64,000 nt of DNA from an uncultured Gammaproteobacteria bacterium (GTDB lineage Bacteria > Patescibacteriota > Microgenomatia > JAMCZE01): contig CAZSSJ010000002.1 in the NCBI GenBank assembly GCA_964609775.1, positions 19,260-83,259 of the forward strand, in the 5' to 3' direction. Shown here piece after piece: positions 1 to 63,015 of the stretch. A program made the position numbers and the translations under genes. The stretch's first letter is position 1; every line of letters begins with the position of its first letter. The notes beneath the pieces were generated by a model that had not been told where the DNA came from, made no database searches, and saw only the letters and a program-made list of their open reading frames with translations.

Positions 1-2
1 GG

Positions 3-395
3 GACGTTATCGAACATTTTACCGACCCGGTTTCGGAAATTACAAAAGTTTATCGCACCCTAAAAAAGGGCGGAGTTTTCGCTTTTTCCACCGTCGACCC
101 TGAGAGTCTAACGGCTAAAATTAGGGGGAGTAAGTGGCCCTGGTATATGGAAATGCACCGAGTCTTATTAAGCCGGCCGGTCATTGAACGCTATCTTCGA
201 CAGTCGGGATTTAAAACAGTCTTTTTTAGGTCACATTGGCGTTTTTTTTCGTTAGGTTATGCTGCCACCAGGTGGGAAACTATCAGTCCCACACTTGCTC
301 GAATTTTGACCAGCGCAGTTAAGATTATGCACCTACAGAAAGTCTTAGTGCCGTTTTATGCTAACGATCTCTACGACTGCTATGCGTTTAAGTAG
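3..395 (+). CDS. class I SAM-dependent methyltransferase, C-terminal fragment (N-terminus lies upstream of the window)
   Basis: Frame 3 is open from nt 3 to the stop at 395. The translation DVIEHFTDPVSEITKVYRTLKKGGVFAFSTV matches the VLEHxxDP post-motif-II segment of Methyltransf_11/23-type methyltransferases. Confidence 0.55.
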   Translation, partial: DVIEHFTDPVSEITKVYRTLKKGGVFAFSTVDPESLTAKIRGSKWPWYMEMHRVLLSRPVIERYLRQSGFKTVFFRSHWRFFSLGYAATRWETISPTLARILTSAVKIMHLQKVLVPFYANDLYDCYAFK

Positions 396-1947
396 CCACC
401 AGCCAAAGCCACTGTCTCTAATTATCCTGGTAACCGTTCTCCTTGCGGCCTTCTTCCTTCGCACCTGGCCGACTCTGAGTGACACCACCCATTTTTCCTT
501 TGATCAGGGCCTGGACATGATCATGGCCAAACTGTTGATCGTCGATCACCAGATCAACTTAATCAGTCGCCACAGTGGACTTCAGGGCGTCTTGATGGGC
601 CCCCTCTGGACTTATTTTCTGGCCACCCCTTTTGCCCTTTCAGGTGGTCACCCCTCCGGCAACGTCATCTTCCTGTCTGTTTTTAATCTGGTCACCTCTG
701 TTCTGGCAACTGTGCTGGTCGGCCGGAAATTCGGCTTGACTGCCGGAGTTGTTACCGGACTTTTTTTTCTGTTCTCACCCTCCTTCATCACCGGTTCTCA
801 AGTAGTCCTTAGTCCTTATCCTCTAATACCCTTATTTATTTTTTTCCCCCTACTTGCCCACGAAACCCTAGTTAACAAAAGCAGTCGTTTCGCCTGGCTT
901 CTCATGCTGCTCTTGGGACTATACTTTCAATTCGAAGTCGGCTTTGCCATTTTTGCCCTTCTCGCTTTTGTTGTCCTTTTTGTTTTTTTCCACTCGTGGT
1001 GGCTTTTTAAAAAGCGGTCATTCTGGGCAGGCTGTGGGCTTTTTGTCTTGACATTTTTGCCCCAGATCCTTTTTGACCTTCGCCACCAATTTCTGATAAC
1101 CAGCGGTTTGTTAGCCTACTTTACTGGCAGTAATACTAGTCTTTACCAGAAGTCAGCTCCACTCATCATTCGCCTCGCTCAGCGATTATATTCATTCTAT
1201 GAAGACGCGACCGCAATGGCATTTTTTGGCCATTGGTCGGTGAATATTGCTCTTCTTCTTCTGGTGGTTTCCGGCTGGATAGTCGCTCTAAAGCATGACG
1301 CAAAAACCCATCGGAAATTTTTGCAAATGATCCTTTTGACATTGGCGTCTTTTTTTATCGGTTTTACCCTTTATCCTGGTCCGATTTGGGGTTGGTATCG
1401 AATTGGCCTACCGGCAATCTACATCTTTCTTGTTTCCATACCAACTGGCGTCCTTTGGCAGAGAATGTATCGTCTTCGGCCGTTAATTCTGATCGTTCTA
1501 ATCGCACTATTTTTGACTGGCGTCAAACCCTGGACTCTCTGGCACCTATATAAAAATCCAGGTGTTGGCGGAGTGGGGACACTCAATAATCAAAAAAAAG
1601 TCATCGACTACGTTTATTCTCAGGCAGAGGGAAAGCCGTTCAACTATCTCGTCTATACCCCGCCGGTCTATGACTACATCTGGCAATATGACTTTTGGTG
1701 GTACGGAAGACAAAAATATGGCTATCTTCCGACAAATTGGCAAATGAGTGTGCCCCTATTGGGAATCGGGGAACAATCCAAACCTCCTGCCACCAAAGAA
1801 CCTTTCTTTCTCATTATTGAGCCAAATACCGACCACCCCGACGAATCCGTCAATTGGAAGAAGACTTTAAAACTAGAGCCAGCAGATTCAAAAGCTACTC
1901 TTCCCGGAGGAATTATCGTCGAAAGTCGGCAAGGCGACAATTTATGA
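382..1947 (+). CDS. polytopic membrane protein, GT-C-like putative glycosyltransferase (family unassigned)
   Basis: Long ORF with at least 10 hydrophobic helices and an acidic first-loop motif, FDQGLDM. A C-terminal soluble domain follows. Start is ATG 382 or ATG 358, both overlapping the upstream stop. The stop at 1947 overlaps the next start as ATGA. Confidence 0.5.
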   Translation: MRLSSHQPKPLSLIILVTVLLAAFFLRTWPTLSDTTHFSFDQGLDMIMAKLLIVDHQINLISRHSGLQGVLMGPLWTYFLATPFALSGGHPSGNVIFLSVFNLVTSVLATVLVGRKFGLTAGVVTGLFFLFSPSFITGSQVVLSPYPLIPLFIFFPLLAHETLVNKSSRFAWLLMLLLGLYFQFEVGFAIFALLAFVVLFVFFHSWWLFKKRSFWAGCGLFVLTFLPQILFDLRHQFLITSGLLAYFTGSNTSLYQKSAPLIIRLAQRLYSFYEDATAMAFFGHWSVNIALLLLVVSGWIVALKHDAKTHRKFLQMILLTLASFFIGFTLYPGPIWGWYRIGLPAIYIFLVSIPTGVLWQRMYRLRPLILIVLIALFLTGVKPWTLWHLYKNPGVGGVGTLNNQKKVIDYVYSQAEGKPFNYLVYTPPVYDYIWQYDFWWYGRQKYGYLPTNWQMSVPLLGIGEQSKPPATKEPFFLIIEPNTDHPDESVNWKKTLKLEPADSKATLPGGIIVESRQGDNL

Positions 1948-4010
1948 TCGGTGACTTCCTGCCACTGCAAACAAATCTTTTACCCTATTGGTTTTTTCCC
2001 TGGAACACTAATTCCTGGTCAGGCTTTACTCCCTTTATTTTCCACAAGGAACTATTAGCTATCGACGCTCTGCGCCAGATTTTTGTCTGGAAAGAATTTG
2101 CTTTTTCCCAAATCAGACTAGGTGGGTGGCCGCTCTGGAATCCCTACAGTTTTTCCGGTCAGCCGCTTTTGGCCAATTTCCAATCCTCGGTTTTCTATCC
2201 GTTGTCTTGGTTTTTTATGTTTCTGCCGCCCATGATTGCCTGGGCGGCTTATGTTTTTAGTCAGCCGCTCCTTTTAGTCACTTTTATGTTCTTCTGGATG
2301 CGACCAAAAGTGGGTGCCGTTGCCGCCCTTTTTGCCGCCCTCGCCCTTGCAACGGCCAGTTTTTTTGCCACCCGCTATTTCTGGGGAGTCTACGTTCATT
2401 CGCTGTTATGGATTCCTCTGGGGTTAGGCCTGATTGACCGCTACAAAGAAGCCAAAATCAAAACATCATCTTTCGTCGCCTCTTTTTCCCTGGTTTGTGT
2501 CTTAACGGTTCTGGGTGGTTATCCTCAGTTTGGCTTGTACGCCATTGCCCTTTTGGGAGCGTACTATTTGTATATTTTTGGCAAAAAGCGCCTGCTCCTC
2601 TTTCTCCTTTCCCTGATTTTGGCCTTGTTAATTTCCGCCGTCCAGTTAATCCCAACAGCCGAACTATACCGCTATTCGCTTCGTGAGGGAACTGCCTCAG
2701 CCCGGACCTTTAGCGATTCCCTCTTGTCTCCGAAATACCTTGCTACCATAGTTTACCCCGACATGTTTGGCAGTCCGGCAGTTAATGACTACACTGGAGG
2801 CAAAGACTACTCTGGTGTCAACGGCTATTTTGGCGTCGTCCCCTTTCTTCTGGCTTCGGGTGCTGCTATTTTCTTACGAAGGGACAGACAAGTTAGGTTT
2901 TGGATCGCCGTTGGAGCATTGGGGCTACTTCTTGCCTACGACAATCCTTTTGCTCGGCTACCTCAGGTGTTGCCCTTGCCCATCATAAGCAGCGGGAATG
3001 CGTGGCACAACCTTTTCTTTTTTCAGTTTGCCGGTGTCGTATTAGCCACAATTCTACTTACCAGGTTACCAAAGAGAGCCATTCTCATCTGTCTCCTGTT
3101 GACAACCTTCTTAGGCTTCTATTATTCACTGAAAGTGTCACCCTTCGGACAGACCAAATATTTTTATCCTCCCCACCCTCTTCTTTCTTGGCTAAGGCAA
3201 AATGCTGGCCTAGATCGGTTTTATGGTTATCGCAGTTCCCACTTTCTTTCTAATCTTTCCACCTACTATCGCATCTATAGTCCCGAGGGCTATGACAGTC
3301 TTTGGCCGTCTTGGTACGGAGAGTTACTTTCCTCCGCTGACAGAGGTAAAGTTCCTCCGGAAGTAAATCGGGCGGATGTCTCCGTGACTGATTGGGACAC
3401 TTCCTACCGGCGTAAATTGCTAAATCTTCTGGGGGTCAAATATTTTTTAGACAAATCTGATAAACCCGGCGGCGACCAAGGTCCAAACCTGGCCAAGTAC
3501 CCGGCCGGGCAATTTGTCTTAAGGAAACAATGGGGAGAAGTGTCCATCTATGAAAACAAAGAGGCCTTGCCGAGAGCTTTTTTGGCAGACGGCGTCATCT
3601 CTGCCCCAAAATCGGAAGTCATCGAGAAAATCTATTCTTTGCCCTCGCTTCGGACCATCATCTTGGATTCACCACCCGGCCTGGGGTCAAAAAAACTGAC
3701 CACCGGATCAGCGAGTATTAAAAAATATCTTCCCAATGAGGTAATCGTGACCACCAATTCCCCTGGTAATTCCCTCCTCTTTTTATCCGATACCTACTTC
3801 CCCGGTTGGGATGCTTTCGTAGACGGCCACAAAGCAAAAATCCTTCGGGCTGACTATGCCTTTCGGGCAGTCCCTGTTCCTCCCGGAAAAAATGAAGTAA
3901 GATTCATATATCAACCAAAATCATTTTTTCTTGGGATTTCTATGAGTTTATTAGGGAGCGCGATCTGGCTATGGCTGTTGTTAAAAAATTTTTTCAAGAA
4001 AACTGGCTAG
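1944..4010 (+). CDS. YfhO-family membrane protein (paralog 1 of 4), putative lipid-linked-glycan transferase
   Basis: N-terminal motif FPWNTNSWSGF...WPLWNPYSFSGQPLLANFQSSVFYP is typical of the YfhO family. The C-terminal module is LFLSDTYFPGWDAFVDGHKAKILRADYAFRAVPVPPGKNEVRFIYQP. ATGA overlap with the upstream gene. Confidence 0.8.
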   Translation: MIGDFLPLQTNLLPYWFFPWNTNSWSGFTPFIFHKELLAIDALRQIFVWKEFAFSQIRLGGWPLWNPYSFSGQPLLANFQSSVFYPLSWFFMFLPPMIAWAAYVFSQPLLLVTFMFFWMRPKVGAVAALFAALALATASFFATRYFWGVYVHSLLWIPLGLGLIDRYKEAKIKTSSFVASFSLVCVLTVLGGYPQFGLYAIALLGAYYLYIFGKKRLLLFLLSLILALLISAVQLIPTAELYRYSLREGTASARTFSDSLLSPKYLATIVYPDMFGSPAVNDYTGGKDYSGVNGYFGVVPFLLASGAAIFLRRDRQVRFWIAVGALGLLLAYDNPFARLPQVLPLPIISSGNAWHNLFFFQFAGVVLATILLTRLPKRAILICLLLTTFLGFYYSLKVSPFGQTKYFYPPHPLLSWLRQNAGLDRFYGYRSSHFLSNLSTYYRIYSPEGYDSLWPSWYGELLSSADRGKVPPEVNRADVSVTDWDTSYRRKLLNLLGVKYFLDKSDKPGGDQGPNLAKYPAGQFVLRKQWGEVSIYENKEALPRAFLADGVISAPKSEVIEKIYSLPSLRTIILDSPPGLGSKKLTTGSASIKKYLPNEVIVTTNSPGNSLLFLSDTYFPGWDAFVDGHKAKILRADYAFRAVPVPPGKNEVRFIYQPKSFFLGISMSLLGSAIWLWLLLKNFFKKTG

Positions 4011-6325
4011 TCATCTTTGCTCTGGGTGTCTCCAATCTTGTTTCTTTTTGGCAATTCTACCTTAAGGGTTTGTTACCCTTTCCCGGGGACCTTCTAGTTT
4101 CCTTTTTCTTTCCTTGGAACTCTGGAGGGTTTGTGGGCTTTGATTCCTGGACCACCCACAAGGAATACATCGCCTCCGACGCTCTCCGTGCCCTTTTCCC
4201 CTGGAAGGTCGAAGTCATCCGTCAATTCTTAAGCGGCAATTTTCCTTTGTGGAACCCCTTCAACTTTGCTGGTACACCGCTTCTGGCTGATTTCCAGTCC
4301 GGAGCCTTTTTTCCCACTAATCTTCTTTACGCCTTTCTGCCTCCTCTCACCGTCTGGATTCTCCAAGTGCTAGTTCTCTTGAGTCTGTTTGCCTTTTTTT
4401 CCTATCTGTTCCTGCGTGCCCTCAAACTCTCACCACTTGCCAGTGCTTTTGGAGCTGTTGTTTTGTCGAATTTACCCTATTTGGTCAACTGGCACGAGAT
4501 CCTCGTCGTGACGCAAAGTGCCCTCTTCTTGCCTCTGGATTTGTACCTACTTGAGAAATTTGCTCAAACAAAAAAAACTATTTATCTTTTTTTTCTGCCC
4601 CTTTTTTTGGCCTTCGCAATTTTTGCTGGCCATCCCCAGACAATCATTATGGTCTTCTTTCTCATCGGAAGTTATGCTCTTTTCCGCCGCTTGTCTTTGG
4701 GCAGAATTTTCCTAATTTTCGTAATCTCACTTCTTTTGGGTGCTGTCCAGTTGTTGCCGTCCTGGCAGTTTTATGAATTCTCGGCCCGGGAAGCAGGAGA
4801 CACGGCTAAACTTTTCCTTGACCACCTCTTCCCGTGGCGAAACGTAATAACCGCCCTAGCTCCGGATTTCTTTGGCAATCCGGTGACCGGAAACTTTTGG
4901 GGGTGGGATTATCACAACTCTCTTGCTTATATTGGTGTGACCGCTTTGTTCCTGGCCCTGTTTTCGTTCTTTTGGCAGTCCAGGAGAAGAGAGGTTGGCT
5001 TTTTTGCCCTGCTGGCACTTATTGGCTTGTTGCTGGCCACCTCTCCACTGGCCAACATTTTTCTCTTCTTTAAAATCCCGATTCTCTCCACCGGCATTGC
5101 CGCCAGGAATATTTTTTTCTGGCAGTTTTCTTTGGGAGTTCTCTCCGCTTTTGGTTTGGACTATCTCCTAAATAAGGTCCGACAAAGCAGGTCTCGGTGG
5201 CATTTTGCCCCCCTAATATTTCTTCTAGTTTTATATCTACTGCTTTGGGTTGTTGTCCTCACAAGCTCTTCCCCGGAGTTTCTTATAAGTCGCCATAATC
5301 TGATTCTCCCCACGGCCATCTTTATCCTGACAGCCATCCTGATTCTCGGCGTCATTGTCCAGCCAAAAATAGGAAAATATCTTCTCTTTGTGCTTTTAGC
5401 ATTGGCAATCTTTGAACAGGGGCGCTATTTTAATAAAATCGAACCCTTCGCTAGCCCCGCCTTTGTCTTTCCCGACCACCCGGTCCTGACTTTTTTGCAG
5501 GAAAATGCCGGAACCAACCGCTTTATCGGAGCAGGGACAGCCAAAATTGATAGCAACTTTGCCACCTACTACCGCATTTTTGACCCCCAGGGCTATGACC
5601 CACTCTATCTTCTTCGCTATGGCCAGCTGCTCGCGGCCTCAAAAAATGGCGGTAAAAAAGCGCCTGTCATCTCCCGGGCTGATGCGATGATCGCCAATTT
5701 GGACCGAAATGATGGCTTTAAAGACCGCTTACTCGATATTTTGGGAGTCAAATACGTCCTCGATAATGAAAATATGTCTGTCGCCAGAGACTGGGAACCG
5801 GGGACTCTTGAGACTGCAAACAACCGCCATCTGCTTGTTTGGCAGCAAGAGAACAAGTGGAAAATTTACGAGCGACAAACCGCCCTCCCCCGAACCTTTT
5901 TGGCCGGAAGCTATGAAGTTGCCTCCTCTGATGAGGCAATTTTGGCACGTCTCTTTGATCCAGACTTTGCTGCTCAAGACAAAATTATCTTGGAAAAAGA
6001 TCCCGGTTTTCCAATCACCAATCAAGGCTCTGCCGAGGCAGTAATCACTCATTATTCTCCCAATACCGTCACGATTCAGACCCGTTCCGACCACCCTCGG
6101 CTGCTTTTTCTTTCGGATAATTACTATCACGGTTGGCTAGCAACCCTTGACGGCCAAAAGGCGGAGATTTTTCGGGCTAACTACACTTTTCGCGCCGTTG
6201 CCGCCCCTTCCGGATCGCACGTGGTGGAATTTAGATATAGTCCGGAGTCATTTCGCCTTGGACTAGTTGTCAGCGTTCTGGGTTTGCTGCTATGGCTAAA
6301 ATTTTTGCGACCAACAAGAAGCTAA
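3971..6325 (+). CDS. YfhO-family membrane protein (paralog 2)
   Basis: Motif LLPFPGDLLVSFFFPWNSGGF...WNPFNFAGTPLLADFQSGAFFP and C-terminal YYHGWLATLDGQKAEIFRANYTFRAV. Overlaps the upstream gene by 40 nt. Confidence 0.8.
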   Translation: MAVVKKFFQENWLVIFALGVSNLVSFWQFYLKGLLPFPGDLLVSFFFPWNSGGFVGFDSWTTHKEYIASDALRALFPWKVEVIRQFLSGNFPLWNPFNFAGTPLLADFQSGAFFPTNLLYAFLPPLTVWILQVLVLLSLFAFFSYLFLRALKLSPLASAFGAVVLSNLPYLVNWHEILVVTQSALFLPLDLYLLEKFAQTKKTIYLFFLPLFLAFAIFAGHPQTIIMVFFLIGSYALFRRLSLGRIFLIFVISLLLGAVQLLPSWQFYEFSAREAGDTAKLFLDHLFPWRNVITALAPDFFGNPVTGNFWGWDYHNSLAYIGVTALFLALFSFFWQSRRREVGFFALLALIGLLLATSPLANIFLFFKIPILSTGIAARNIFFWQFSLGVLSAFGLDYLLNKVRQSRSRWHFAPLIFLLVLYLLLWVVVLTSSSPEFLISRHNLILPTAIFILTAILILGVIVQPKIGKYLLFVLLALAIFEQGRYFNKIEPFASPAFVFPDHPVLTFLQENAGTNRFIGAGTAKIDSNFATYYRIFDPQGYDPLYLLRYGQLLAASKNGGKKAPVISRADAMIANLDRNDGFKDRLLDILGVKYVLDNENMSVARDWEPGTLETANNRHLLVWQQENKWKIYERQTALPRTFLAGSYEVASSDEAILARLFDPDFAAQDKIILEKDPGFPITNQGSAEAVITHYSPNTVTIQTRSDHPRLLFLSDNYYHGWLATLDGQKAEIFRANYTFRAVAAPSGSHVVEFRYSPESFRLGLVVSVLGLLLWLKFLRPTRS

Positions 6326-8616
6326 TTCTGGTTTTCCTGTGCCTGTTAGCGGCCAATGTTGCAATTTTCTGGCAGTTCTATTTTCGTGGACTTTTGCCCT
6401 TTCCCGGCGATCTACTGGTGTCATTTTTCTTTCCCTGGAACTCTGGCGGCTTTGCCAATTTTGATCAGTGGACCACTCACAAAGAAGTCATCGCCGCCGA
6501 TGTCATTCGGCAAATGTATCCTTGGAAAGCCCTCCTAGTCAACGCCGTAAAGAACGGCACCTGGCCTCTGTGGAACCCCTACAATTTTTCTGGAACTCCG
6601 CTTCTGGCTAATCTTCAGTCATCCGTTTTCTTTCCGGCCAATGTTGTTTTTCTCTTTTTGCCCCGGCTTGTTTCCTGGATCAGTCTCGTCATTTTTCTCC
6701 CCCTCATTTTTTCCATTTTTTGCTATCTCTTTTTACGCTCTTTAAACATTAGCCGGCTCGCCAGTCTCCTCGGAGCAATCATCCTGTCAAATATTTCTTA
6801 TTTGCTCGTCTGGTCAGAGCAATTGGTCTTTATTCAAAGTGTTCTTTTCCTGCCACTCTCCCTGTTGCTAATTAATTATTATTCAGTTTCAAAAAAACCA
6901 CTTCTTCTCCTCCTTTTGCCCCTAACCTTATCTTTTGCCGTTTTTGGCGGTCACATCCAAACAGTTGTCTATGTTTGTGTTGTGGTAACTTTATATGCCC
7001 TTTTCCGCCGCCTGCCAATCAAATACCTTTTTATCATCGCTCTTTCGACCATAGGCCTGTCATCACTACAACTTCTTCCTTCTCTCGAACTGTATCTCTA
7101 TTCAGCTCGCGAGGGAAATGCCTCTGCCCAGTTGTTTCTTGAATCTGTCCTTCCGATCCAAAATCTCGCCACCATTCTTGCTCCGGATTTCTTCGGCAAC
7201 CCCGCCACCGGCAATTTTTTCGGCTCTGACTATGGCAATAATCAGGTCTATTTCGGAGTATTGGCAGCATTTTTTTCCGTCGTTGGACTTTATTACGGAC
7301 TGAAGGGAAAAAAGAGTTTGACGCTTTTTTTTGCTCTCGTTGGCCTAGGAGGTCTGGTGTTTTCTCTAGATCCTTTTGCTCGCTTGTTTCTTGTTTTTAA
7401 AATCCCGGTTCTTTCTTCAGCGGTCGCTGCCCGAGGAATTTTCATTTTTCAATTTTGTTTTGCCGTCGTGGCCGCTTTGGGAATTGATCAATTTCTGGCA
7501 AACACAAGGAAACGAGCAATAATTACTATTTTTTTCCTCTTTCTCGGCTTCTACCTGCTCCTATATTTTTCCACCAAGTTAATTCCCAATCACGCCACTA
7601 TTGCTCAAAAGAACCTAGTTCTGCCCTTGCTGGTCCTACTTTCCACTGGTGTGACCGCCTTTCTCTCCCGTTTTCGAAGGCAAGCAGCCGTTGTTCTCAT
7701 TCTAATTGCCACTTTGGAATATGCTTATTTTTTCAACAAATTTGCCCCCTTCGCCAGGAGAGAGTTTGTCTTTCCTGGGCATCCGGTTTTCAATTTTTTG
7801 ACGACGCGGGCGGAAGTTGACCGGTTTTACGGCTTCGGGACAGCCTATGTTGACAATAATTTTGCCTCCTACTACCGCGTCTTTTCCGCCGAGGGCTATG
7901 ACTCGCTATATATCAAGCGCTATGGTGAACTTCTCGCCTCCACCAAAAACGGCCAACTTCCCCCAGATGTTCCCCGTTCTGACGCCCTCTTTACAAGTCA
8001 AGACAACGTCTTCCGTAACCGGCTCTTTGATCTTTTAGGCGTCAAGTATATCCTTGATAAAAATGATAATCCCCAGTCAAATTGGGAACCGGAGAATGAC
8101 AAATTCCCCGAGGAGCGCTATAAGCTTGTCTGGCAGAAACTGAAATGGAAAGCCTATGAGAGAAAAACCGCCTTGCCTCGGGTATTTCTCGCCGATTCAT
8201 TCCTCGTTACCAATTCCGACCAGCTGATATTGTCAAAAATGTTTGACCCCCGATTCGATCTGGCAGCCACCGTGATCCTTGAAAAGAACCCCCCTTGGGA
8301 ACTTGCTCCGGGAGGGAAAAGTGAGGCAAAAATGAGCAACTACCGGGAAAACATGGTTGTCATTGAGACACAAGCTGACAAACCCAAAGCACTTTTCTTA
8401 TCAGATACCTACTACCCCGGTTGGAAAGCTACTCTTGATGGAAAACCAATAGATATCTATCGAGCCGATTATATTTTTAGATCCGTCATGGTTCCGTCTG
8501 GAAAACATACTGTCATTTTTAACTACGATCCTGAAACTTTTAAATTTGGGCTTGCCCTTTCAGGATTATCAGCCGCTCTTCTCTTGATAACCATCTTGCG
8601 AAAATCGCATCCATGA
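6292..8616 (+). CDS. YfhO-family membrane protein (paralog 3)
   Basis: The N-terminal 50 aa are almost identical to paralog 2: LLPFPGDLLVSFFFPWNSGGFANFDQWTTHKE. C-terminal YYPGWKATLDGKPIDIYRADYIFRSVMVPSGKHTV. Confidence 0.8.
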   Translation: MAKIFATNKKLILVFLCLLAANVAIFWQFYFRGLLPFPGDLLVSFFFPWNSGGFANFDQWTTHKEVIAADVIRQMYPWKALLVNAVKNGTWPLWNPYNFSGTPLLANLQSSVFFPANVVFLFLPRLVSWISLVIFLPLIFSIFCYLFLRSLNISRLASLLGAIILSNISYLLVWSEQLVFIQSVLFLPLSLLLINYYSVSKKPLLLLLLPLTLSFAVFGGHIQTVVYVCVVVTLYALFRRLPIKYLFIIALSTIGLSSLQLLPSLELYLYSAREGNASAQLFLESVLPIQNLATILAPDFFGNPATGNFFGSDYGNNQVYFGVLAAFFSVVGLYYGLKGKKSLTLFFALVGLGGLVFSLDPFARLFLVFKIPVLSSAVAARGIFIFQFCFAVVAALGIDQFLANTRKRAIITIFFLFLGFYLLLYFSTKLIPNHATIAQKNLVLPLLVLLSTGVTAFLSRFRRQAAVVLILIATLEYAYFFNKFAPFARREFVFPGHPVFNFLTTRAEVDRFYGFGTAYVDNNFASYYRVFSAEGYDSLYIKRYGELLASTKNGQLPPDVPRSDALFTSQDNVFRNRLFDLLGVKYILDKNDNPQSNWEPENDKFPEERYKLVWQKLKWKAYERKTALPRVFLADSFLVTNSDQLILSKMFDPRFDLAATVILEKNPPWELAPGGKSEAKMSNYRENMVVIETQADKPKALFLSDTYYPGWKATLDGKPIDIYRADYIFRSVMVPSGKHTVIFNYDPETFKFGLALSGLSAALLLITILRKSHP

Positions 8617-35122: not shown

Positions 35123-35294
35123 AAGATGAATATAGCACCAAACCTACGCCATGGCGTTTTAATGATGATAACCGATTTTGTTAAACAATTAAAAGTTTTT
35201 AATCAAATCGGGGGAATTGAATTATTAAACTTCATGAATGCCTTTATGAATGTCATTTCCAAGCAGGTGAAATTCCAGAGCGTTCTGGAGAATT

Positions 35295-51367: not shown

Positions 51368-51379
51368 CGCCATCTGATA

Positions 51380-56471: not shown

Positions 56472-57284
56472 ATGGAAATAATCATTCGACCAAAAAGTGT
56501 CTTCAATCTAGATTTTAAAGAAATCTGGCATTATCGCGAACTTTTTTACGTCTTTGCCTGGCGAGATATTAAAGTCCGTTATAAACAAACAGTTTTAGGC
56601 ATCTCGTGGGCTCTTTTTCAACCTCTAGTTACGACTGGAATATTTAGCATTTTTTTTGGAAAAATTGCCAAAATCCCTTCTGACCATATCCCATACCCGT
56701 TATTTGTTCTTACTGGATTGGTTTTTTGGAGCTTTTTTTCAAATAGTGTTACGGCGGCAAGTCAAAGCATGGTCGCCAGTGAAAACATCATCAAAAAAGT
56801 CTACTTTCCACGCCTGATTATTCCACTTTCCTCAATTGTGACAGCCGGGCTTGACTTTCTAATTTCCTTTTTGATGCTATTACTAGTAATGGTTTACTAC
56901 CGGTATTTTCCTCAATTTACCAGCCTGCTAGTTCTCCCAGTGTTGTTGCTTACTTTAATTCTCACTGCTGGGGGAATCGGTTTATTTACATCAGCGATTA
57001 ATGTCAAATATCGCGATGTCAGATATATCCTGCCGTTTTTCATCCAAATTGGGCTCTTCGTTACTCCCATTATCTATCCAATAAGTGTTATCTTGGACTA
57101 CCGTAAATGGCTTCTGATTCTCAATCCTCTGACCTCAGTAATCGAAACAGCGCGTGCCCTCTATTCGGGCAAACCAATAAATTATTTTCTCATCTCTTTA
57201 GGCTTTGCGATTTCGGTCGTCATATTTTCTCTCGGCCTTTACTATTTTCGCAAGACCGAAGCTTTCTTTGCTGACGTCGCTTAG
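56472..57284 (+). CDS. wzm: ABC-2 type polysaccharide exporter permease (Wzm/TagG-like)
   Basis: FKEIWHYRELFYVFAWRDIKVRYKQTVLGISWALFQPL. Six TM helices. Confidence 0.9.
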   Translation: MEIIIRPKSVFNLDFKEIWHYRELFYVFAWRDIKVRYKQTVLGISWALFQPLVTTGIFSIFFGKIAKIPSDHIPYPLFVLTGLVFWSFFSNSVTAASQSMVASENIIKKVYFPRLIIPLSSIVTAGLDFLISFLMLLLVMVYYRYFPQFTSLLVLPVLLLTLILTAGGIGLFTSAINVKYRDVRYILPFFIQIGLFVTPIIYPISVILDYRKWLLILNPLTSVIETARALYSGKPINYFLISLGFAISVVIFSLGLYYFRKTEAFFADVA

Positions 57285-57293: not shown

Positions 57294-58574
57294 ATGGACA
57301 ATATTATTGAAGTCAGTGATCTATCTAAAAAGTACCGTCTCGGCCAAGAACAGCGCTATTACACGCTACGGGACAGCATTGCGTCTTTGTCTTCGCTTCC
57401 CAAACAGCTTTGGGGGGTGTGGGGAAATTTTAGCGAAATTCTTGAAAAAAATGAATTTTGGGCTCTTAAAGACGTTTCTTTTTCGGTCAAACGAGGCGAA
57501 GTTGTTGGAGTCATCGGGAAAAACGGTGCTGGTAAAAGCACTCTGCTTAAAATTCTGTCTCGCATCACTCCTCCAACCTATGGTCAAGCTCGACTGCGTG
57601 GTCGTGTAGCTAGCCTTCTGGAGGTTGGAACTGGTTTTAACCAGGAATTAACAGGCCGCGAAAATATCTTTCTCAACGGTGCTATCTTAGGCATGAGCCG
57701 CCAAGAGGTAAGAAGAAAATTCGACGAGATAGTCGCTTTTGCCGAAGTCGAAAGGTTCATCGACACGCCAGTGAAACGTTATTCTTCAGGGATGTATTTG
57801 CGCCTTGCCTTTGCCGTCGCCGCCCATTTGGAACCAGAAATACTTCTGGTTGACGAAGTCCTTTCCGTTGGTGATGCCCAATTTCAAGAAAAGAGTTTGG
57901 GAAAAATGCGCGAAATTACCCAGCAGGAAGGCAGGACAATAATATTTGTCAGTCACAACATGGGTGCAATTAACGCTCTTTGCAACCGGTGTTTATTGCT
58001 TGAACAAGGGCAGACTGTCGCTTTCGGCGAAACCGCCGAGGTCGTCACCAAATACTTATCGTCGAAAAGAAAATCAGTCAACAATATTTGGAAGATTCCG
58101 AAAAAACCGTCCGTCCCATTTTATGTTTCTAAAATGTGGTTAACTGACGAAAACGGGAAAGCTATTTCTCAAATAGAGATGGGAGAAAATGTTAACCTCA
58201 ATCTAGAAGCTAAAATTACTCAGGAAATCAGGGATGGAGTCCTTGCCGCTCTCGTCGCTACGGAAGGATCACCGCTTCTTTATATCTATGATACTGACAA
58301 CTCCCCAGAACTGCGTCGGAAGCGTCGGGTAGGTAAATATTTTGAACAGGTTCTCCTGCCCACATCCATATTTAAAGAAGGCGACTACACGATCAGTATA
58401 ATGATCGGCCACGGACAAGATAATCTCACCGACCAAAACTGTGAAATTTCCTTCAAGATCGTTAACACCAAAAGGGATTTGACACACCTCAGTTTCCGTA
58501 AAAACAGACTAGGATTTCTTTATCAGGAAACCCACTGGGAGGTGCGCCAACTTGGACGTCAAAAAGAGTACTAA
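57294..58574 (+). CDS. wzt: ABC polysaccharide exporter ATP-binding protein (Wzt/TagH-like) with C-terminal carbohydrate-binding domain
   Basis: Walker A GKNGAGKSTLLK, signature YSSGMYLRLAFA, Walker B LLVDEVLSVGD. An extra approximately 180-aa C-terminal beta-rich domain resembles Wzt_C. Confidence 0.9.
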   Translation: MDNIIEVSDLSKKYRLGQEQRYYTLRDSIASLSSLPKQLWGVWGNFSEILEKNEFWALKDVSFSVKRGEVVGVIGKNGAGKSTLLKILSRITPPTYGQARLRGRVASLLEVGTGFNQELTGRENIFLNGAILGMSRQEVRRKFDEIVAFAEVERFIDTPVKRYSSGMYLRLAFAVAAHLEPEILLVDEVLSVGDAQFQEKSLGKMREITQQEGRTIIFVSHNMGAINALCNRCLLLEQGQTVAFGETAEVVTKYLSSKRKSVNNIWKIPKKPSVPFYVSKMWLTDENGKAISQIEMGENVNLNLEAKITQEIRDGVLAALVATEGSPLLYIYDTDNSPELRRKRRVGKYFEQVLLPTSIFKEGDYTISIMIGHGQDNLTDQNCEISFKIVNTKRDLTHLSFRKNRLGFLYQETHWEVRQLGRQKEY

Positions 58575-59520
58575 CCACCTTGTCCGGTACTTAGACAGGG
58601 CCTTTGGAGTCAGATCAGTTTTTCCTCTAAACCCGGTCAGAAAAAGGGCCAGAAAGGAACTTCTTAGACGGCTATCATCCGGAATTTATAAATTCCAGGA
58701 GATAAATTGTCCCTCCTGTGCCAGTCATAGATTTACAATCTTGGCTAAACAGGACATGTACGCCCTGCCGCATCTTGTGGTCATTTGCCTCTGTTGCTCG
58801 CTGGTTTATACGCGACAAAGATTGACGGAAAAATCTTTGTCAAACTTTTATCAAAATCTCTACCAGCAGTTAGACCGGGGTAGGGATTTGCCAAAAGAAG
58901 AATATTTCCGTTTAGAATCTAAAAAAGGACAAGACATTTTCCACTATATGTTCAATAACTCTTTGCTACCTCCTAAAAACACACTCATTGTTGAAATTGG
59001 TTGTGGTGTTGGAGGCGTACTTTATCCATTCCGAAAGTACGGTTATGAGATAATAGGTTGCGATTTCAATCAAGACTATATCAATTTTGGCATCACCACC
59101 CGCGGTCTTAATCTAAAAGCTGGAGGATTGAAAGAGATATCAAAAGTCCTCTTTAAAAGCAAAAAGAAAGTAGGTCTAGTCATTTATGAACAAGTATTTG
59201 AACATCTACCTGACCCCAAAAAAGAATTAACACAACTTAAAAAAATTATGACATCAAACACTTTACTCTATCTTGGCGTTCCAGGAATTAAAAATATTCG
59301 TCATCACTACCAGGAAAATTTTCGTGCATTCCTTCAATTTCCCCATTTGACCTATTTTGAACTGTCAACTCTTAAATCTCTGCTTGCTAGTCAGGGATTT
59401 CAATTATTAAAGGGGACTGAGAGAATTAGAGGAGTTTTTAAACTGGGTCAGAAAAGAAATATCCTCCTCACCAACCCGGATGGGATTATAACCTATATTC
59501 AAAATTTGAAATTTATCTAA
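58552..59520 (+). CDS. class I SAM-dependent methyltransferase with N-terminal zinc-ribbon (CxxC...CxxC)
   Basis: CPSCASH...CLCCS, then motif I IVEIGCGVGGVL and IYEQVFEHLPDP. Confidence 0.75.
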   Translation: MDVKKSTNHLVRYLDRAFGVRSVFPLNPVRKRARKELLRRLSSGIYKFQEINCPSCASHRFTILAKQDMYALPHLVVICLCCSLVYTRQRLTEKSLSNFYQNLYQQLDRGRDLPKEEYFRLESKKGQDIFHYMFNNSLLPPKNTLIVEIGCGVGGVLYPFRKYGYEIIGCDFNQDYINFGITTRGLNLKAGGLKEISKVLFKSKKKVGLVIYEQVFEHLPDPKKELTQLKKIMTSNTLLYLGVPGIKNIRHHYQENFRAFLQFPHLTYFELSTLKSLLASQGFQLLKGTERIRGVFKLGQKRNILLTNPDGIITYIQNLKFI

Positions 59521-59532
59521 TTTGCCATCCCT

Positions 59533-60258
59533 ATGGCTTTGGAAAAGCAAGACCTAACGCTGCTCCTTAGATTAAGAAAACAATATCCCGAAGGAAAAAA
59601 TCTGTGTATTTTAGGCGATTGCACTTTTCATTTTACCGATGAAACACTCAATCGAAAGTGTGGAATTAAATTTAAAGGGCAAGCAAAACAGACGACTTTA
59701 AAGTCTTTTAGCCAAGCCTATGGCTTCGAAACAGCGGTGACTATAGATATTGACGGCAATCCAACCCTTAAATTCGATTTACAAAAGAAGCTCCCTCGGA
59801 ATTTGATCGGAAAATTTGATTGGGTTATTGATGCTGGCACGTTATTCTGGTGTTTTGATATTGCCGGGATTTGGGAAAATATCCTCCTGCTTCTTAAGCC
59901 TCACGGTTGTGTGTTTCACATTGATGCCTTAACCGGCTATTTTGGCCGGGGTTATTATTCTTTGCATCCACGGTTGTTTAGCGATTTCTATAGCCAGAAT
60001 GGCCTAAAAATTATTACGTTCGCTTACCGTCTCAGGCCACCATCCCTTAATATTATCGAAAAAAGGTTCCGGAGACTTGAGTGGCAACCTTTTCCGCCAA
60101 GCCACATGTTTTTAAAAAATGCGGATAAATTTAATATGGAATTTTCTGATAAAAACACCACGGACCCGTCAATTGTGCCAAATGATGCCGTTTTGGCCTG
60201 TTTCGCGGTAAGGGCGAAAAAAGTGCCTTTCCAAACCGTTTTACCGTCAAATATTTAA
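59533..60258 (+). CDS. hypothetical protein (possible degenerate methyltransferase fold)
   Basis: ORF with good coding appearance. LCILGDCTF...DWVIDAGTLFW pattern loosely resembles the MTase motif I/post-I region. No firm assignment. Confidence 0.4.
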   Translation: MALEKQDLTLLLRLRKQYPEGKNLCILGDCTFHFTDETLNRKCGIKFKGQAKQTTLKSFSQAYGFETAVTIDIDGNPTLKFDLQKKLPRNLIGKFDWVIDAGTLFWCFDIAGIWENILLLLKPHGCVFHIDALTGYFGRGYYSLHPRLFSDFYSQNGLKIITFAYRLRPPSLNIIEKRFRRLEWQPFPPSHMFLKNADKFNMEFSDKNTTDPSIVPNDAVLACFAVRAKKVPFQTVLPSNI

Positions 60259-60276
60259 TTACTTGAGTTAATACCT

Positions 60277-60915
60277 GTGCCAAATAACGCCGATATTCTT
60301 ATTGTTGTAGCTCACCCGGACGACGAGTCCTTATGGTTTGGCGAAGGAATTCACCAGCTGGTAGCTAGGGGCAAAAATATAATTGTCCTTTGCCTCTCAG
60401 GTGGATCAAATCCAATCCGAAGCGCCGAATTTAAAAAAGCCTGCTTAAGACTCAAAGTTAAAGGCAAGATGCTGAACAATCCTGATCGAGGGATGCCGCG
60501 TTTGCAGACTAGCCCAAGTGACCTAGATTTGGTCGATTGGCATCCCGAATATGTGATAACTCATGCACCGTGGGGAAATGAACGACATCATCCCCACCAC
60601 CAACAGTGCTTTCAAATCTCCCGGTCATGGGCTTTAAAAGGGGGAATTCCGTTTGGTTATTTCTCGGAAAAAAAACCTCTCATTCTGAATCCTTTAATAG
60701 AAACGATCGAGTTTTCAGTCAACCGTCCGAGGAAAAACGCCCTTTTGTCCATCTATGATTCAGAAATTTCCGGACTTCGCGACTACGAAGCCTACCACCA
60801 CGACAAGGAATATCTAATTATCGAGCGAAAATATTTTTCCCGCATTTCCAAGATATTCACTAGGCTTTGCCAAACCTTAAGTTCTATTTTCGAATCGCGA
60901 GGACCACGAACGTGA
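60277..60915 (+). CDS. PIG-L/LmbE-family N-acetylglucosaminyl deacetylase
   Basis: GTG start. ILIVVAHPDDESLWFG is the AHPDDE zinc-binding motif. HPHHQQ appears downstream. Confidence 0.8.
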   Translation: MPNNADILIVVAHPDDESLWFGEGIHQLVARGKNIIVLCLSGGSNPIRSAEFKKACLRLKVKGKMLNNPDRGMPRLQTSPSDLDLVDWHPEYVITHAPWGNERHHPHHQQCFQISRSWALKGGIPFGYFSEKKPLILNPLIETIEFSVNRPRKNALLSIYDSEISGLRDYEAYHHDKEYLIIERKYFSRISKIFTRLCQTLSSIFESRGPRT

Positions 60916-60966
60916 GTTCGAGGCGTTGCGAGAGAAAAGAAACTGGCGAAGCCAAAACGAAAGAGA

Positions 60967-60986
60967 CCTCGGGCGTAAGCCCGAGG
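60967..60986 (+). terminator. GC-rich hairpin (8-bp stem CCTCGGGC/GCCCGAGG with GTAA tetraloop) in a 96-nt intergenic spacer. Possible terminator or RNA structural element.
   Basis: Perfect inverted repeat cctcgggc-gtaa-gcccgagg. The downstream U-tract is weak (aguuuc), so intrinsic-terminator status is uncertain. Confidence 0.3.
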
Positions 60987-61011
60987 AGTTTCATACAATT
61001 AAAATAATCAG

Positions 61012-62154
61012 ATGCCGTGCATATTAAAAAAACTGGCAAGGAAAAGTCCGGGTATAGTCACTTTTACTCATAACGAAGCCCTATATGGTTTACCGGCGAG
61101 ATCGCGTAAGGTTAAAAACTACATTACCCAAACCTCTGGGAAAAGATGGATTTATGGCGTTCATCTTCAGGGCAGCTTGAAACATCTGAAGGAGTGGCCA
61201 CTTGAGCCCTGGCAAGCATTCATTTCTTGGTCGAACCCAAAGTCCCCATTTCTGTCAAATGTCCCCACCGAAAAACTAATTGATATTAATCACATTAATC
61301 TTCTACCCGAATTTGGGTTTACCCCACGCCCTAAGATTTGGGACATCATCATTATTTCTCGGCCATCAAAAATTAAAAGAATTCAGGAATCAGTTTTCAT
61401 CATTAAAAAATTAATGTTGAAAAGACCTGAGTTAAAAACAATTTTTATCGTTCCAACTCCCAGTCGGCAAGCCAAAGACATTGACCGGAGTTTTTTTGAA
61501 TTGCCCAAAAGGTTATTTTCTACTAAAGAGATGAAAAATACATCATTTATTGTTTCACCGACTGAAAGTTTCGGAAATTTTCCCGTTTCCTCAGAACTAA
61601 TATCAAAATTGATTTCACAGTCAAAATTTTTACTGTTAACTTCTCACCGTGAAGGTGGGCCACGGGCGATTGGCGAAGCGCTTCTGGCGGGAACACCCTG
61701 CATTATATCTAAAAATTTAGACACGGGAATCGTGGGCGTTTTTGACAATAAAAATACTCTCACAATCGACGACAATATCGATCTAGCCACGCAGCAAATT
61801 AATCAAGGCTTGCAAAATTACTCTTCATTTAAAATTGATGATAAAAAAATCTGCCGCTTTTTCAGTGAGCGGCATAATAAGCCAATATTTAAAGCCAAAT
61901 TATCAAAACTACTAACACAAATGAGTTACCAGGTGGCGGGAGAATGGTATCTTGAAGATTTGTCTTTTCGGCTCTGCGGTCACGGTCGAAAATTCAGTTT
62001 TCAATCCCTGGACGACGACCGACAATTCTTTTTTTGGTTTGATAAGATTACTTCAGTAAATCCATATGATGAAGATGGTCTGATTTATCACCCCGAATCA
62101 TTATCAGACTATGCTCTTCGGAAACTAAAAAGGTTATGGCAGACAAGACGCTGA
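61012..62154 (+). CDS. GT4-like (GT-B fold) glycosyltransferase, divergent
   Basis: C-terminal SHREGGPRAIGEALLAGTPCIISKNLDTGIV aligns with the GT4 E-x7-E region. The N-terminal half is unassigned. Confidence 0.6.
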   Translation: MPCILKKLARKSPGIVTFTHNEALYGLPARSRKVKNYITQTSGKRWIYGVHLQGSLKHLKEWPLEPWQAFISWSNPKSPFLSNVPTEKLIDINHINLLPEFGFTPRPKIWDIIIISRPSKIKRIQESVFIIKKLMLKRPELKTIFIVPTPSRQAKDIDRSFFELPKRLFSTKEMKNTSFIVSPTESFGNFPVSSELISKLISQSKFLLLTSHREGGPRAIGEALLAGTPCIISKNLDTGIVGVFDNKNTLTIDDNIDLATQQINQGLQNYSSFKIDDKKICRFFSERHNKPIFKAKLSKLLTQMSYQVAGEWYLEDLSFRLCGHGRKFSFQSLDDDRQFFFWFDKITSVNPYDEDGLIYHPESLSDYALRKLKRLWQTRR

Positions 62155-63015
62155 TATTTTTTCTCCTCATGATTCCTGGCACCCTGCTCCTCGGAATCAA
62201 TGACGTTCTTGCTCGAAAGATTCTTCGTTCCGGGGTGGCCGACAGTCTTCTTGTGGGGCTAATGTTCTTGGCCTCGGGAGTTCTTGGCCTTGCCCTTTTA
62301 TCTCTTTTTGGTCTTCCGGAAATAAAAAATGGCTTTTGGCTGGTTTTTTCGGGAACTGTAATTCTCAATGTTTTTGGTCAGGTGGCTTGGTACCGAGCCT
62401 TCAAACTCGAGAGGTATCTTTACTTTCTCCACTGTGCCTCTTGACCCCGCCCCTCGTCATTTTCACCGGCTCCTCCTTCTTCACGAACAGCCAACACTTG
62501 CCGGTGTCAGCGGGATCCTGATTACCACACTGGGTTTGTTAGTCCTCCTCCAGCCGGATCTTTTATCAACAGAGCTAAAAATAAAAGCTGTTGTCTTGAG
62601 AAAAGGCGTGGTCTACGGCATTATCGGCGCCATCCTATTTTCCTTTTCTTTTCCCTTGGACAAAATCACCATATCAAAACCTTCAGGTCTCGTTTTGGCA
62701 GCTGGAATGAGTACGGCCGTCGGTCTAACGACCCTTCTCTACAGCCTTGTGACGAGCAGTGGACAGCGTGCTAATCCTCATCTTCTCATCAAAGAAAAAA
62801 CCCTCATATTTCTAATCATCACTATCTTTGCTGGCACCGTGCTCGTTTCCCAAGCCCTCCTCTACGCTCCCGTGGCCAACGCCGCCAGTGTTAAAAGGCT
62901 CTGGTCCCTCTGGGCTGTGATCTTGGGCGGGAAGTTTCTCCACGAGAGTCACATCAAAGAAAAAATTATTGCCACAGTCATTATGGCCTTGGGGATTTTT
63001 CTGCTCTCAGTTTAG
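62136..63015 (+). pseudogene. EamA/DMT-family transporter disrupted by two -1 frameshifts (near 62425 and 62480)
   Basis: Frame A (62136..62444) encodes TM1-3, ending ...GQVAWYRAFKLE. Frame C encodes VSLLSPLCLLTPPLVIFTGSSFF (TM4). Frame B (62368..63015) continues with HEQPTLAGVSGILITTLGLLVLL and a second EamA half. Together the three frames rebuild a canonical 10-TM EamA protein. Confidence 0.5.

Follow-up and report, generated by a model that had tools for sequence, protein, structure and literature searches.

A 75-kb array of GT-C-type glycosyltransferase genes in a Microgenomates genome: a probable expanded system for glycosylation outside the cell

We analysed a stretch of 64,000 nucleotides from contig CAZSSJ010000002.1 (assembly GCA_964609775.1, positions 19,260 to 83,259 of the forward strand; hereafter the window), for which an initial annotation, made from the sequence, had proposed a cluster of about 60 kb of membrane glycosyltransferase (GT) genes. 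Exact look-up identified the source as contig UY21_C0001 (140,054 bp) of Microgenomates group bacterium GW2011_GWA1_48_10, a member of the Patescibacteria, or candidate phyla radiation (CPR); sample and run names suggest an origin in groundwater of the Rifle aquifer. The array is real and extends beyond the window: its left edge lies 11.8 kb further 5′, directly after a divergently oriented trmD gene, and the whole array comprises ~75 kb with 27 GT-C-type genes (21 inside the window and six upstream, u1, u3 and u4–u7) and at most seven candidate lipid-phosphate sugar synthases. The island probably serves to decorate an exported polymer, and possibly also proteins, as a much enlarged form of multi-component transmembrane glycosylation system. 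It takes up over half of the contig (140 kb) and, in all likelihood, several per cent of the genome. The identical contig was recovered in at least 16 independent assemblies longer than 50 kb, which rules out a chimera and shows that the array is not an assembly artefact. Between positions 1 and 63,588, 55 of the 57 called genes lie on the + strand, and 30 of the 52 adjacent same-strand gene pairs overlap while a further 16 are spaced by 0–15 nt; with a window coding density of 99%, this packing is operon-like.

The proposed count of about 21 GT-C-type membrane genes on one strand was borne out, as 21 large polytopic proteins of GT-C type or GT-C-like character were found in the window (Table 1), all with 6–13 predicted membrane helices. 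Pfam placed 17 of these (nine PMT_2, where eight had been annotated, four YfhO, two PTPS_related, and one each of GT87/MptA_B and PIG-V), paralogy placed one (g7) and AlphaFold models two (g11 and g25), and one (g33) is probable only; these last four (g7, g11, g25 and g33) have no Pfam match of their own. PF02366 was matched by g6, g16, g18, g22 and g34. Three proteins (g1, g17 and g21) fell below the PMT_2 gathering score and were placed in this family because BLASTP ties them to clear members at 1e-21 to 1e-98. Paralogue groups were defined by all-against-all BLASTP including the upstream genes. These were a YfhO group of four (30–47% identity), a PTPS_related group of three (g5, g7 and g26; 26–30%), PMT_2 group A (g6, g16, g17, g18, g21 and g22; 27–41%, with g34 and u7 more distant), PMT_2 group B (g1 with upstream u1, u4, u5 and u6) and the pair of g19 with upstream u3. 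The PTPS_related and YfhO groups were themselves related by hhalign (97.4% probability). A top paralogue identity of 47% ruled out recent gene amplification, and the long direct repeats in the window reflect DNA-level conservation between paralogues only.

GT-C enzymes carry their catalytic aspartate directly after the first transmembrane helix (TM1), and each paralogue group had a conserved acidic residue or pair at this position. Group A had an invariant D48 E49 (DE motif), full-length group B members a D-Q motif, and the PTPS_related group a conserved D33; for the families of g25, g11 and g33 the corresponding residues were D33 D34, D67 and D68, respectively. Across the whole array, 15 of the 27 GT-C genes were PMT_2/PMT-like with a DE or D-Q motif in loop 1. 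Neither the PMT_2 group A profile nor the YfhO protein g4 gave a meaningful match to PDB sequences.

Family profiles of g11, g25 and g33 likewise found nothing meaningful among PDB sequences, so that comparison of folds was needed. The g11 family comprises 39 members, all from CPR genomes, and has no Pfam model. The AlphaFold model of g11 (pLDDT 89.2, pTM 0.89) had only GT-C proteins among its top 29 Foldseek matches. AglB and STT3 were the folds nearest to the predicted one, which also has a C-terminal globular domain like that of AglB. The WWDxG motif was absent from g11 and its 27 aligned relatives, and identity as an oligosaccharyltransferase of the STT3/AglB/PglB type was rejected on this ground. 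An hhalign comparison of the g11 family with a small profile of window PMT_2 proteins was not significant (3.6%). The g25 family, with ~49 proteins found in CPR only, includes some members that match PF13231, and its profile aligned with that of PMT_2 group A at 96.4% hhalign probability. The g25 AF2 model (pLDDT 89.3) had top 13 PDB matches that were all GT-C at probability 1.00, among them PglB, AglB, STT3, ArnT and Pmt4. Transporters appeared only at Foldseek probabilities of 0.2 or below, and a transporter identity for the unassigned membrane proteins was rejected. Judged from these predicted structures, g11 and g25 have the GT-C fold; Pfam families, paralogy and Foldseek thus agree with the initial annotation that the large membrane proteins are GT-C enzymes and not transporters, and no result contradicted it. 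The third family, that of g33, has 338 members; 42 of 43 members had no Pfam match, and its alignment to the g25 family (86–91% hhalign probability) covered only ~125 columns. By this similarity g33 is a probable GT-C protein.

The enzymes expected to supply such transferases were found among the GT-C genes. Eight GT2 proteins are encoded in the window, four generic (g9, g12, g27 and g35) and four (g10, g15, g24 and g30) whose best full-length matches were polyprenol-phosphate sugar synthases of the GtrB/ArnC/DPMS/PpgS type, in agreement with the four such enzymes proposed initially. Sequence places g10 and g30 in this type with strong support and g15, a putative polyprenol-phosphate hexose synthase, with moderate support; g24 is the weakest of the four. 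g10 matched Synechocystis GtrB (PDB 5EKP) over its full length at 8e-78 and ArnC at 1e-43, and its best NCBIfam match was PgfS (249 bits). The DxDxQ motif was found in g10, g30 and the upstream GT2 v1; one of the two 248-aa GT2 enzymes at the start of the array carries DGDLQ, and u2 resembles dolichol-phosphate (Dol-P)-hexose transferases. The gene for g30 is followed by one for a small DUF2304 membrane protein. This family, which includes GacJ, WpsB and Rv3632, binds and stimulates GacI, WpsA and PpgS (bioRxiv 10.1101/180810; PMC10821137). The pair has the features of the GacI/GacJ module, a DxDxQ-type GT2 directly followed by DUF2304, and by analogy the small protein is a putative activator of g30. 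Flippases were present as well: g8 is of the Wzx/MOP type, and the array also encodes a GtrA_DPMS_TM protein (53 bits), 9.9 kb before the window begins.

A Pfam scan of every protein divided the window into two arms that overlap by a few kb. The left arm (1 to ~47.6 kb) consists of the large polytopic proteins interleaved with the eight GT2s, four GT4s, g8 and the DUF2304 protein. The right arm (~43–63 kb) holds eight GT4s, three to four S-adenosylmethionine (SAM)-methyltransferases, an Acyl_transf_3 protein, an enolase-superfamily enzyme, a PIG-L deacetylase and the Wzm and Wzt components of an ATP-binding cassette (ABC) transporter, including methyltransferases that could cap an exported chain. 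By gene content the 43–63 kb region is a conventional Wzm/Wzt ABC-transporter-dependent glycan locus. The initial annotation had held that the cluster was not a conventional O-antigen or capsule locus, which stands for the left two thirds of the window and fails for this region. The ABC locus would most simply supply the acceptor polymer.

The order of the core genes of the array was conserved in relatives. It was kept in four other genomes at 42–67% identity, and the GT-C complement varied. In the metagenome-assembled genome DBS2-5.bin62, a methyltransferase, g1, three YfhO genes, two PTPS genes, Wzx, GT2, GtrB, a g11-like gene, GT2 and GT4 follow one another at 43–67% protein identity, and GCA_027371575.1 and GCA_023380635.1 keep the core of Wzx, GT2, GtrB-like, g11-like, GT2, GT4 and YfhO genes, with a counterpart in GCA_023380635.1 that is 42% identical to g11. 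The run Wzx, GT2, GtrB-like, g11-type GT-C, GT2 and GT4 (g8–g13) is thus a conserved sub-module. In every case the g11-family gene had a GtrB-like GT2 on one side, a GT2/GT4 pair on the other and a Wzx gene further upstream. Variation was seen in relative L007, with an extra PMT_2 gene and without g6; in L008, with one YfhO gene where the window has three and without g9–g11; and in L022, with a different run of PMT_2 genes. Such variation fits surface-glycan diversification between lineages.

Multi-component systems consist of a GT-A enzyme that makes a C55-P-sugar, a GtrA or Wzx flippase and a GT-C enzyme with an acidic loop motif, and the GT-A enzyme may be tied to the membrane itself or be soluble and paired with a small membrane protein (PMC8035078). 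All of these parts were found: GT-A proteins of synthase type, GtrA and Wzx flippases, and multi-spanning GT-C proteins with the acidic loop motif. From the families, predicted folds, motifs, gene order and conservation of order we infer donors, sequence of steps and acceptor as follows. Dpm1/GtrB-like GT2s would charge polyprenol phosphate with several different single sugars at the inner membrane face from nucleotide sugars, and the GtrA and Wzx flippases would bring the lipid-linked sugars to the outer face, where each GT-C enzyme would attach its own sugar, through one particular linkage, to an extracellular acceptor. Because the GT-C genes far outnumber the synthases, lipid-linked donors would be shared. 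The arm of GT4s, methyltransferases and acyltransferase would build a polymer that is exported by Wzm/Wzt and is the most economical acceptor. The g8–g13 module would probably assemble a short oligosaccharide on polyprenol monophosphate for Wzx to flip, and g11 could transfer this oligosaccharide en bloc, in the manner of lactococcal WpsA-J or archaeal AglJ/AglB. Some PMT_2 enzymes may glycosylate surface proteins additionally or instead.

Several observations weigh against this account. The identities of acceptor, sugars and lipid cannot be read from sequence, and no GT2 match reached an NCBIfam curated cut-off. Over the window, 20 kb upstream and 10 kb downstream, no WecA/Bac_transf initiator, LCP ligase, Wzy or ligase was found, so that the start and anchoring of the ABC-exported polymer are unexplained. 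The C-terminal extension of the Wzt-type ATPase g45 scored 24.1 bits against Wzt_C, below the cut-off of 30.4; g24 lacks a strict DxDxQ motif; and g33 is a GT-C protein only with probability. Since 27 GT-C enzymes far exceed the requirements of any one polymer characterised so far, there are likely to be several acceptors, and a single-pathway picture may be too simple. As to the missing steps, no PF00953 or PF02397 initiating phosphoglycosyl transferase was found in the window proteins or the flank Pfam lists, and one may be encoded elsewhere in the genome; Wzx is present and the Pfam scans of the window gave no Wzy_C or O-antigen-polymerase match, and a divergent Wzy may be among the unassigned membrane proteins.

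Other targets than an exported polymer are live, either as alternatives or in addition, and two were weighed: proteins and a lipoglycan of the lipoarabinomannan (LAM) type. If the island served mainly protein O-glycosylation, PMT_2/GT39-type and other enzymes would use polyprenol-phosphate sugars directly on S-layer, pilin or other secreted proteins, as do actinobacterial Pmt, Caldicellulosiruptor GT39 and streptococcal Pgf, and the ABC arm would be an unrelated neighbour. The predominance of PMT_2/PMT-like genes with their loop-1 motifs kept (15 of 27) speaks for this, as do the PgfS match of g10, PgfS being from a protein O-glycosylation locus of S. mutans, the protein oligosaccharyltransferases that head the structural matches of g11, and the sortase, LTD, RTX-repeat and CAP proteins encoded just upstream of the array. 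Yet PMT_2 also holds the lipid A and teichoic-acid modifiers ArnT and GtlB (PMC8035078), so that membership of the family does not point to a protein acceptor; characterised relatives of YfhO, GT87 and PIG-V act on glycopolymers or glycolipids; and two GT-C genes, g33 and g34, stand among the GT4 genes of the polymer arm, which favours one system. We regard protein glycosylation as an unlikely main function. A glycolipid anchored in the membrane and extended and branched almost wholly on the outer face by successive GT-Cs with polyprenol-phosphate sugars as donors, as in mycobacterial lipomannan (LM) and LAM, would account for the many GT-C genes with few evident cytoplasmic initiators, for g19 and u3 of the GT87/MptA_B family and the PIG-V-like g29, and for the g30–DUF2304 pair, which is the same module as PpgS with its partner in M. 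tuberculosis (Rv3631/Rv3632). Lipids resembling phosphatidylinositol mannosides have already been proposed in Saccharibacteria from GT87 and Dol-P-mannose genes (PMC6031116). Only two to three of the 27 GT-C genes, however, belong to LM/LAM mannosyltransferase families, no PimA/PimB-type annotation or phosphatidylinositol-related gene was present in the regions read, and Wzx with Wzm/Wzt points to undecaprenyl-linked polymers. We consider a lipoglycan of this kind improbable.

It is also conceivable that the island is not one system but a hypervariable collection of independent GT2/GT-C modules with several acceptors and many redundant or decaying genes. The differences in GT-C content among relatives (one YfhO gene against three, g9–g11 absent from L008, an extra PMT_2 gene in L007), a frameshift of g7 in one assembly and a drop in GC content in the ABC arm are in keeping with this. 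Against it, all 21 window GT-C genes are intact with acidic motifs kept and form two densely packed co-directional blocks, the paralogues are old (at most 47% identity) and so neither recent duplicates nor decaying copies, and the core genes keep their order even where identity is as low as 42%; we consider such a collection very improbable. The expanded multi-component system acting on an exported polymer is the account that we prefer.

The frameshift in g7 arises at a perfect heptanucleotide repeat (TTATACT, 3.9 copies, 12386..12412, + strand). In one independent assembly, ENA ERZ27254754, the repeat is shorter by exactly one unit between identical flanks, which splits g7 into open reading frames of 256 and 238 aa. 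The longer allele was present in the window, L001 and L004, giving one variant among the four sequences read (site 13760-13792 in L002). Searches of metagenome contigs with the repeat flanks separated by a variable gap, and with an exact 36-mer, gave 0 matches. A perfect 8-nt repeat (ATTGCATT, 3.5 copies, 31620-31647) lies inside g21; its copy number was the same in L019, the one other assembly read directly, and wherever else an assembly spans g21 the gene was called intact (550 aa). Non-triplet repeats in surface glycosyltransferase genes are a classical substrate of phase variation in pathogens such as Haemophilus (PMC2651432). The g7 variant could be due to slipped-strand phase variation or to assembly error, and it hints at phase variation in the CPR radiation, where, as far as we found, this has apparently not been described. 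The combinatorial set of transferases suggested by the initial annotation finds indirect support, and no more, in the age of the paralogues, the varying GT-C complement and the differing g7 copy number in one assembly. A bolder proposal is that the greater part of a highly complex surface glycan is made extracellularly in this CPR lineage by an assembly line of ~27 GT-Cs, that g11 represents a new CPR-restricted, oligosaccharyltransferase-like GT-C family transferring an oligosaccharide en bloc, and that GT-C genes (g7 and g21) undergo slipped-strand phase variation. We put this combination forward tentatively and think it rather doubtful as a whole; if it were true, phase-variable GT-Cs would let a population of ultra-small episymbionts switch the combination of glycans in its coat, for attachment to hosts or to evade phages.

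Table 1. Features of the array and adjoining genes, in window coordinates (aa, amino acids; TM, transmembrane helices; scores in bits are profile matches).
Feature	Position	Strand	Assignment	Basis or remark
Array start, in order	upstream of window		two 248-aa AglJ/ArnC/PpgS-type GT2s, GtrA_DPMS_TM, u1 PMT_2, u2 GT2, u3 MptA_B family, u4–u7 PMT_2, methyltransferase	
u8	1..395	+	SAM-methyltransferase (297 aa), 3′ end	starts 498 nt before window; gene call and Pfam Methyltransf_23/31/11
g1	382..1947	+	PMT_2-like GT-C, group B, 521 aa, ~10 TM	PMT_2 18 bits, below cut-off; BLASTP to u4 2e-21
g2	1944..4010	+	YfhO GT-C	PF09586 67 bits; paralogue of g3, g4
g3	3971..6325	+	YfhO GT-C	PF09586 71 bits
g4	6292..8616	+	YfhO GT-C	PF09586 95 bits; 47% identical to g3
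g5	8613..10103	+	PTPS_related (PF10131) GT-C-like	43.6 bits
g6	10100..11749	+	PMT_2/PMT GT-C, group A	Pfam; DE motif after TM1
g7	11718..13454	+	PTPS_related-like GT-C	BLASTP to g5, g26 1e-50; weak precomputed PF10131 match
g8	13432..14877	+	Wzx/MOP-type flippase	Polysacc_synt_3 161 bits; MOP flippase 123 bits
g9	14874..15767	+	generic GT2, DADE motif, one C-terminal hydrophobic segment	Pfam, NCBIfam
g10	15771..16700	+	GtrB/ArnC/PgfS-type putative synthase	two C-terminal TM, DGDLQ motif
g11	16645..18378	+	predicted GT-C-fold protein, CPR-restricted family	oligosaccharyltransferase-like architecture, without WWDxG
g12	18381..19187	+	generic GT2	Pfam, NCBIfam
g13	19274..20350	+	GT4 (GT-B) glycosyltransferase	Pfam
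g14	20374..22557	+	YfhO GT-C	PF09586 79 bits
g15	22554..23237	+	short Dpm1/AglJ-like GT2, DADLE motif	AglJ 113 bits; PDB 5MLZ (DPMS) 8e-17, residues 1-205
g16	23234..24859	+	PMT_2/PMT GT-C, group A	58.6 bits
g17	24867..26402	+	PMT_2-like GT-C, group A	22.8 bits; BLASTP to g18 5e-80
Small hydrophobic protein, 142 aa	26392..26820	+	no family	sits between two PMT_2 genes
g18	26810..28399	+	PMT_2/PMT GT-C, group A	61.3 bits
g19	28399..29778	+	GT87/MptA_B-family GT-C	PF09594 30.4 bits; precomputed PF26314 match
g20	29747..31252	+	PMT_2 GT-C, no close paralogue	41.8 bits; hhalign to group A 96%
g21	31258..32910	+	PMT_2-like GT-C, group A	Pfam below cut-off, BLASTP
g22	32907..34478	+	PMT_2/PMT GT-C, group A	Pfam
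Palindrome ACGCCATGGCGT, copy 1	34448..34459	.	12-bp perfect palindrome	just past g23 3′ end
g23	34475..35122	-	PaaX_M/Cas2-like-domain regulator	PF20803 62.8 bits
Palindrome ACGCCATGGCGT, copy 2	35146..35157	.	12-bp perfect palindrome	24 nt upstream of g23 start, divergent promoter region
g24	35326..36075	+	short Dpm1/AglJ-like GT2	AglJ 70 bits; Dol-P-hexose transferase 53 bits
g25	36082..37539	+	divergent PMT_2-like GT-C (predicted fold)	invariant DD after TM1; hhalign, AlphaFold, Foldseek
g26	37536..39206	+	PTPS_related GT-C-like	52.9 bits
g27	39213..39971	+	generic GT2	Pfam, NCBIfam
g28	39973..41022	+	GT4	Pfam
g29	40997..42100	+	PIG-V/Mannosyl_trans2-like GT-C	PF04188 32.6 bits
g30	42104..42784	+	PpgS/GacI-like putative synthase, DADGQ at residue 86	PpgS 147 bits full length; 5MLZ 2.6e-10
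DUF2304 protein, 114 aa	42785..43129	+	small membrane protein	PF10066 75.7 bits; starts 1 nt after g30 stop
g31, g32	43129..45302	+	two GT4s	Pfam
g33	45295..46365	+	8-TM membrane protein, probable GT-C	family with invariant Asp; hhalign to g25 family
g34	46403..47593	+	PMT_2/PMT GT-C	33.4 bits; hhalign to group A 99.4%
g35	47590..48354	+	EpsE-like generic GT2	Pfam, NCBIfam
g36	48342..49349	+	enolase-superfamily (MR_MLE) enzyme	Pfam
g37–g42	49356..55242	+	GT4, methyltransferase, GT4, methyltransferase, GT4, GT4	Pfam; cytoplasmic chain building/modifying
g43	55257..56462	+	Acyl_transf_3 membrane acyltransferase	Pfam
g44	56472..57284	+	Wzm-type ABC-2 permease	PF01061 69.8 bits
g45	57294..58574	+	Wzt-type ABC ATPase	PF00005 ABC_tran 78 bits; C-terminal extension
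g46–g48	58756..60915	+	methyltransferase; g47 (241 aa), no assigned family; PIG-L-family de-N-acetylase	Pfam
g49	61012..62154	+	GT4-like glycosyltransferase	Pfam
EamA-type pair	62136..63015	+	two adjacent overlapping membrane genes, 102 aa and 193 aa	Pfam
g51	63007..63588	-	KdsC/Kdn-9-P-phosphatase-like haloacid dehalogenase-type (HAD) hydrolase	first of nonulosonic-acid gene set running past window

Two genes are encoded on the opposite strand, g23 and g51, of which g23 is the only one inside the array, which thus consists of two co-directional blocks. The palindrome ACGCCATGGCGT occurs exactly twice in the 64 kb, against 0.03 copies expected, and both copies flank g23; by its position it is a candidate operator for autoregulation of g23 or control of the downstream block. 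A scan of 34–44 kb with promoter and terminator consensus sequences was uninformative, with 19 matches compared to 12 expected; CPR promoters are not known. No tRNA and no Rfam family was found in the window. In relative L021 a gene of 143 aa (20617-21048) stands where the window has the small hydrophobic protein of 142 aa, a possible accessory subunit.

At the right end, the EamA-type pair stands where a single drug/metabolite transporter of ~300 aa would be expected, and may be a split gene or a small two-gene flippase or transporter like ArnE/ArnF. A nonulosonic-acid gene set follows (window 63007-64000; L014 11996-17532), with g51, a PseF-like cytidylyltransferase, a PhyH dioxygenase and NeuB, the last (300 bits) fused to an AP_endonuc_2 domain in a protein of 630 aa and followed by a Crp-family regulator. 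These genes suggest a sialic-acid-like sugar in the glycan. GC content was 0.39–0.42 in the ABC arm (50000-62000) compared to 0.43–0.51 in the GT-C arm; low GC is common in variable or horizontally exchanged polysaccharide loci. On the other side, 12–20 kb upstream of the window (L017 1-6300), lie genes for likely surface or secreted proteins (sortase, LTD domain, RTX-repeat, peptidase M73 of the camelysin/TasA-like type, CAP), which are possible acceptors for protein glycosylation, and next to them, beyond trmD, is an RmlA-like nucleotidyltransferase gene.

CPR bacteria make up a large share of bacterial diversity; their genomes, of ~1 Mb, encode very few biosynthetic pathways, and a life attached to other cells is presumed for them. 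If such an organism spends ~75 kb on ~27 outer-face glycosyltransferases, its surface glycan is probably central to its lifestyle and could act in attachment, in recognition of a host or in defence against phages. Several uncharacterised GT-C families (those of g11, g25 and g33 and the PTPS_related group) stand together in the array as a compact, conserved set, and as likely donor synthases adjoin the GT-C genes, heterologous pairing of donor and transferase is feasible. Multiple dolichol-phosphate mannosyltransferase genes are known from Peribacteria, another CPR group (PMC4736985), and GT87 and Dol-P-mannose genes from a saccharibacterium (PMC6031116). In the open-access literature we found no paper describing a GT-C supercluster in CPR, consistent with the initial statement that an array of this kind is uncharacterised.

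Among known systems, GtrA/GtrB/GtrC, CsbB/GtcA/YfhO and GtlA/GtcA/GtlB consist of the same three types of part as the array (PMC8035078), and the multi-component systems of Firmicutes share the YfhO and PMT_2 families with it. Characterised systems of this type have one to three GT-A/GT-C pairs, often scattered (PMC8035078), whereas ~27 GT-Cs and at most seven synthases stand here in one array. In Streptococcus pyogenes, GacI and GacJ make GlcNAc-P-Und, the Wzx-type GacK flips it, and the GT-C enzyme GacL adds the sugar to polyrhamnose exported by GacD/E (bioRxiv 10.1101/180810). This group A carbohydrate resembles the array in its ABC-exported polymer, its GT2 with DUF2304, its Wzx-type flippase and its side chain added outside by a GT-C; it differs in having one GT-C and one side-chain sugar, and RgpA/B/F-type rhamnan genes and a GacO/WecA-type initiator were not found in the array regions read.

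The lactococcal cwps locus, of ~25–30 kb, has two to three GT-C genes. Its rhamnose-containing cell wall polysaccharide system (Rha-CWPS; WpsA/B, WpsC-F, WpsG, WpsH/J and CsdAB/CD/EF) is matched in composition by the g8–g13 module. There WpsA/WpsB start an oligosaccharide on C55-monophosphate, GT2 and GT4 enzymes extend it, Wzx flips it, and GT-Cs polymerise it and transfer it onto an ABC-exported rhamnan (PMC10821137). WpsH/J are unrelated in sequence to the CPR-only g11 family, for which en-bloc transfer would follow by analogy. With archaeal Agl pathways (AglJ, AglD, AglR, AglS and AglB), the array shares short GT2s for which AglJ and Dol-P-hexose transferase models are the best or good matches, the fold of g11, closest to AglB, and glycans on a lipid monophosphate, which in the array are presumed; it departs from them in that WWDxG is absent from g11 and its relatives, as noted above, and no NCBIfam cut-off was reached.

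To our knowledge, mycobacteria are the only well-studied case of many GT-Cs building a large outer envelope glycan from polyprenol-P sugars. They have ~15–20 envelope GT-C enzymes, with genes dispersed over a genome of 4.4 Mb. The arabinogalactan and LAM enzymes (PimE, MptA-C, EmbA-C and AftA-D), with PpgS/Rv3632/Rv3779, have in common with the array the GT87/MptA_B family and the pair of PpgS with DUF2304, but most families of the array (YfhO, PTPS_related and the g11 family) are not mycobacterial types, and no Emb/Aft-type families were detected here. Overall, the type of system is known, and what is new is its scale, its clustering and its host.

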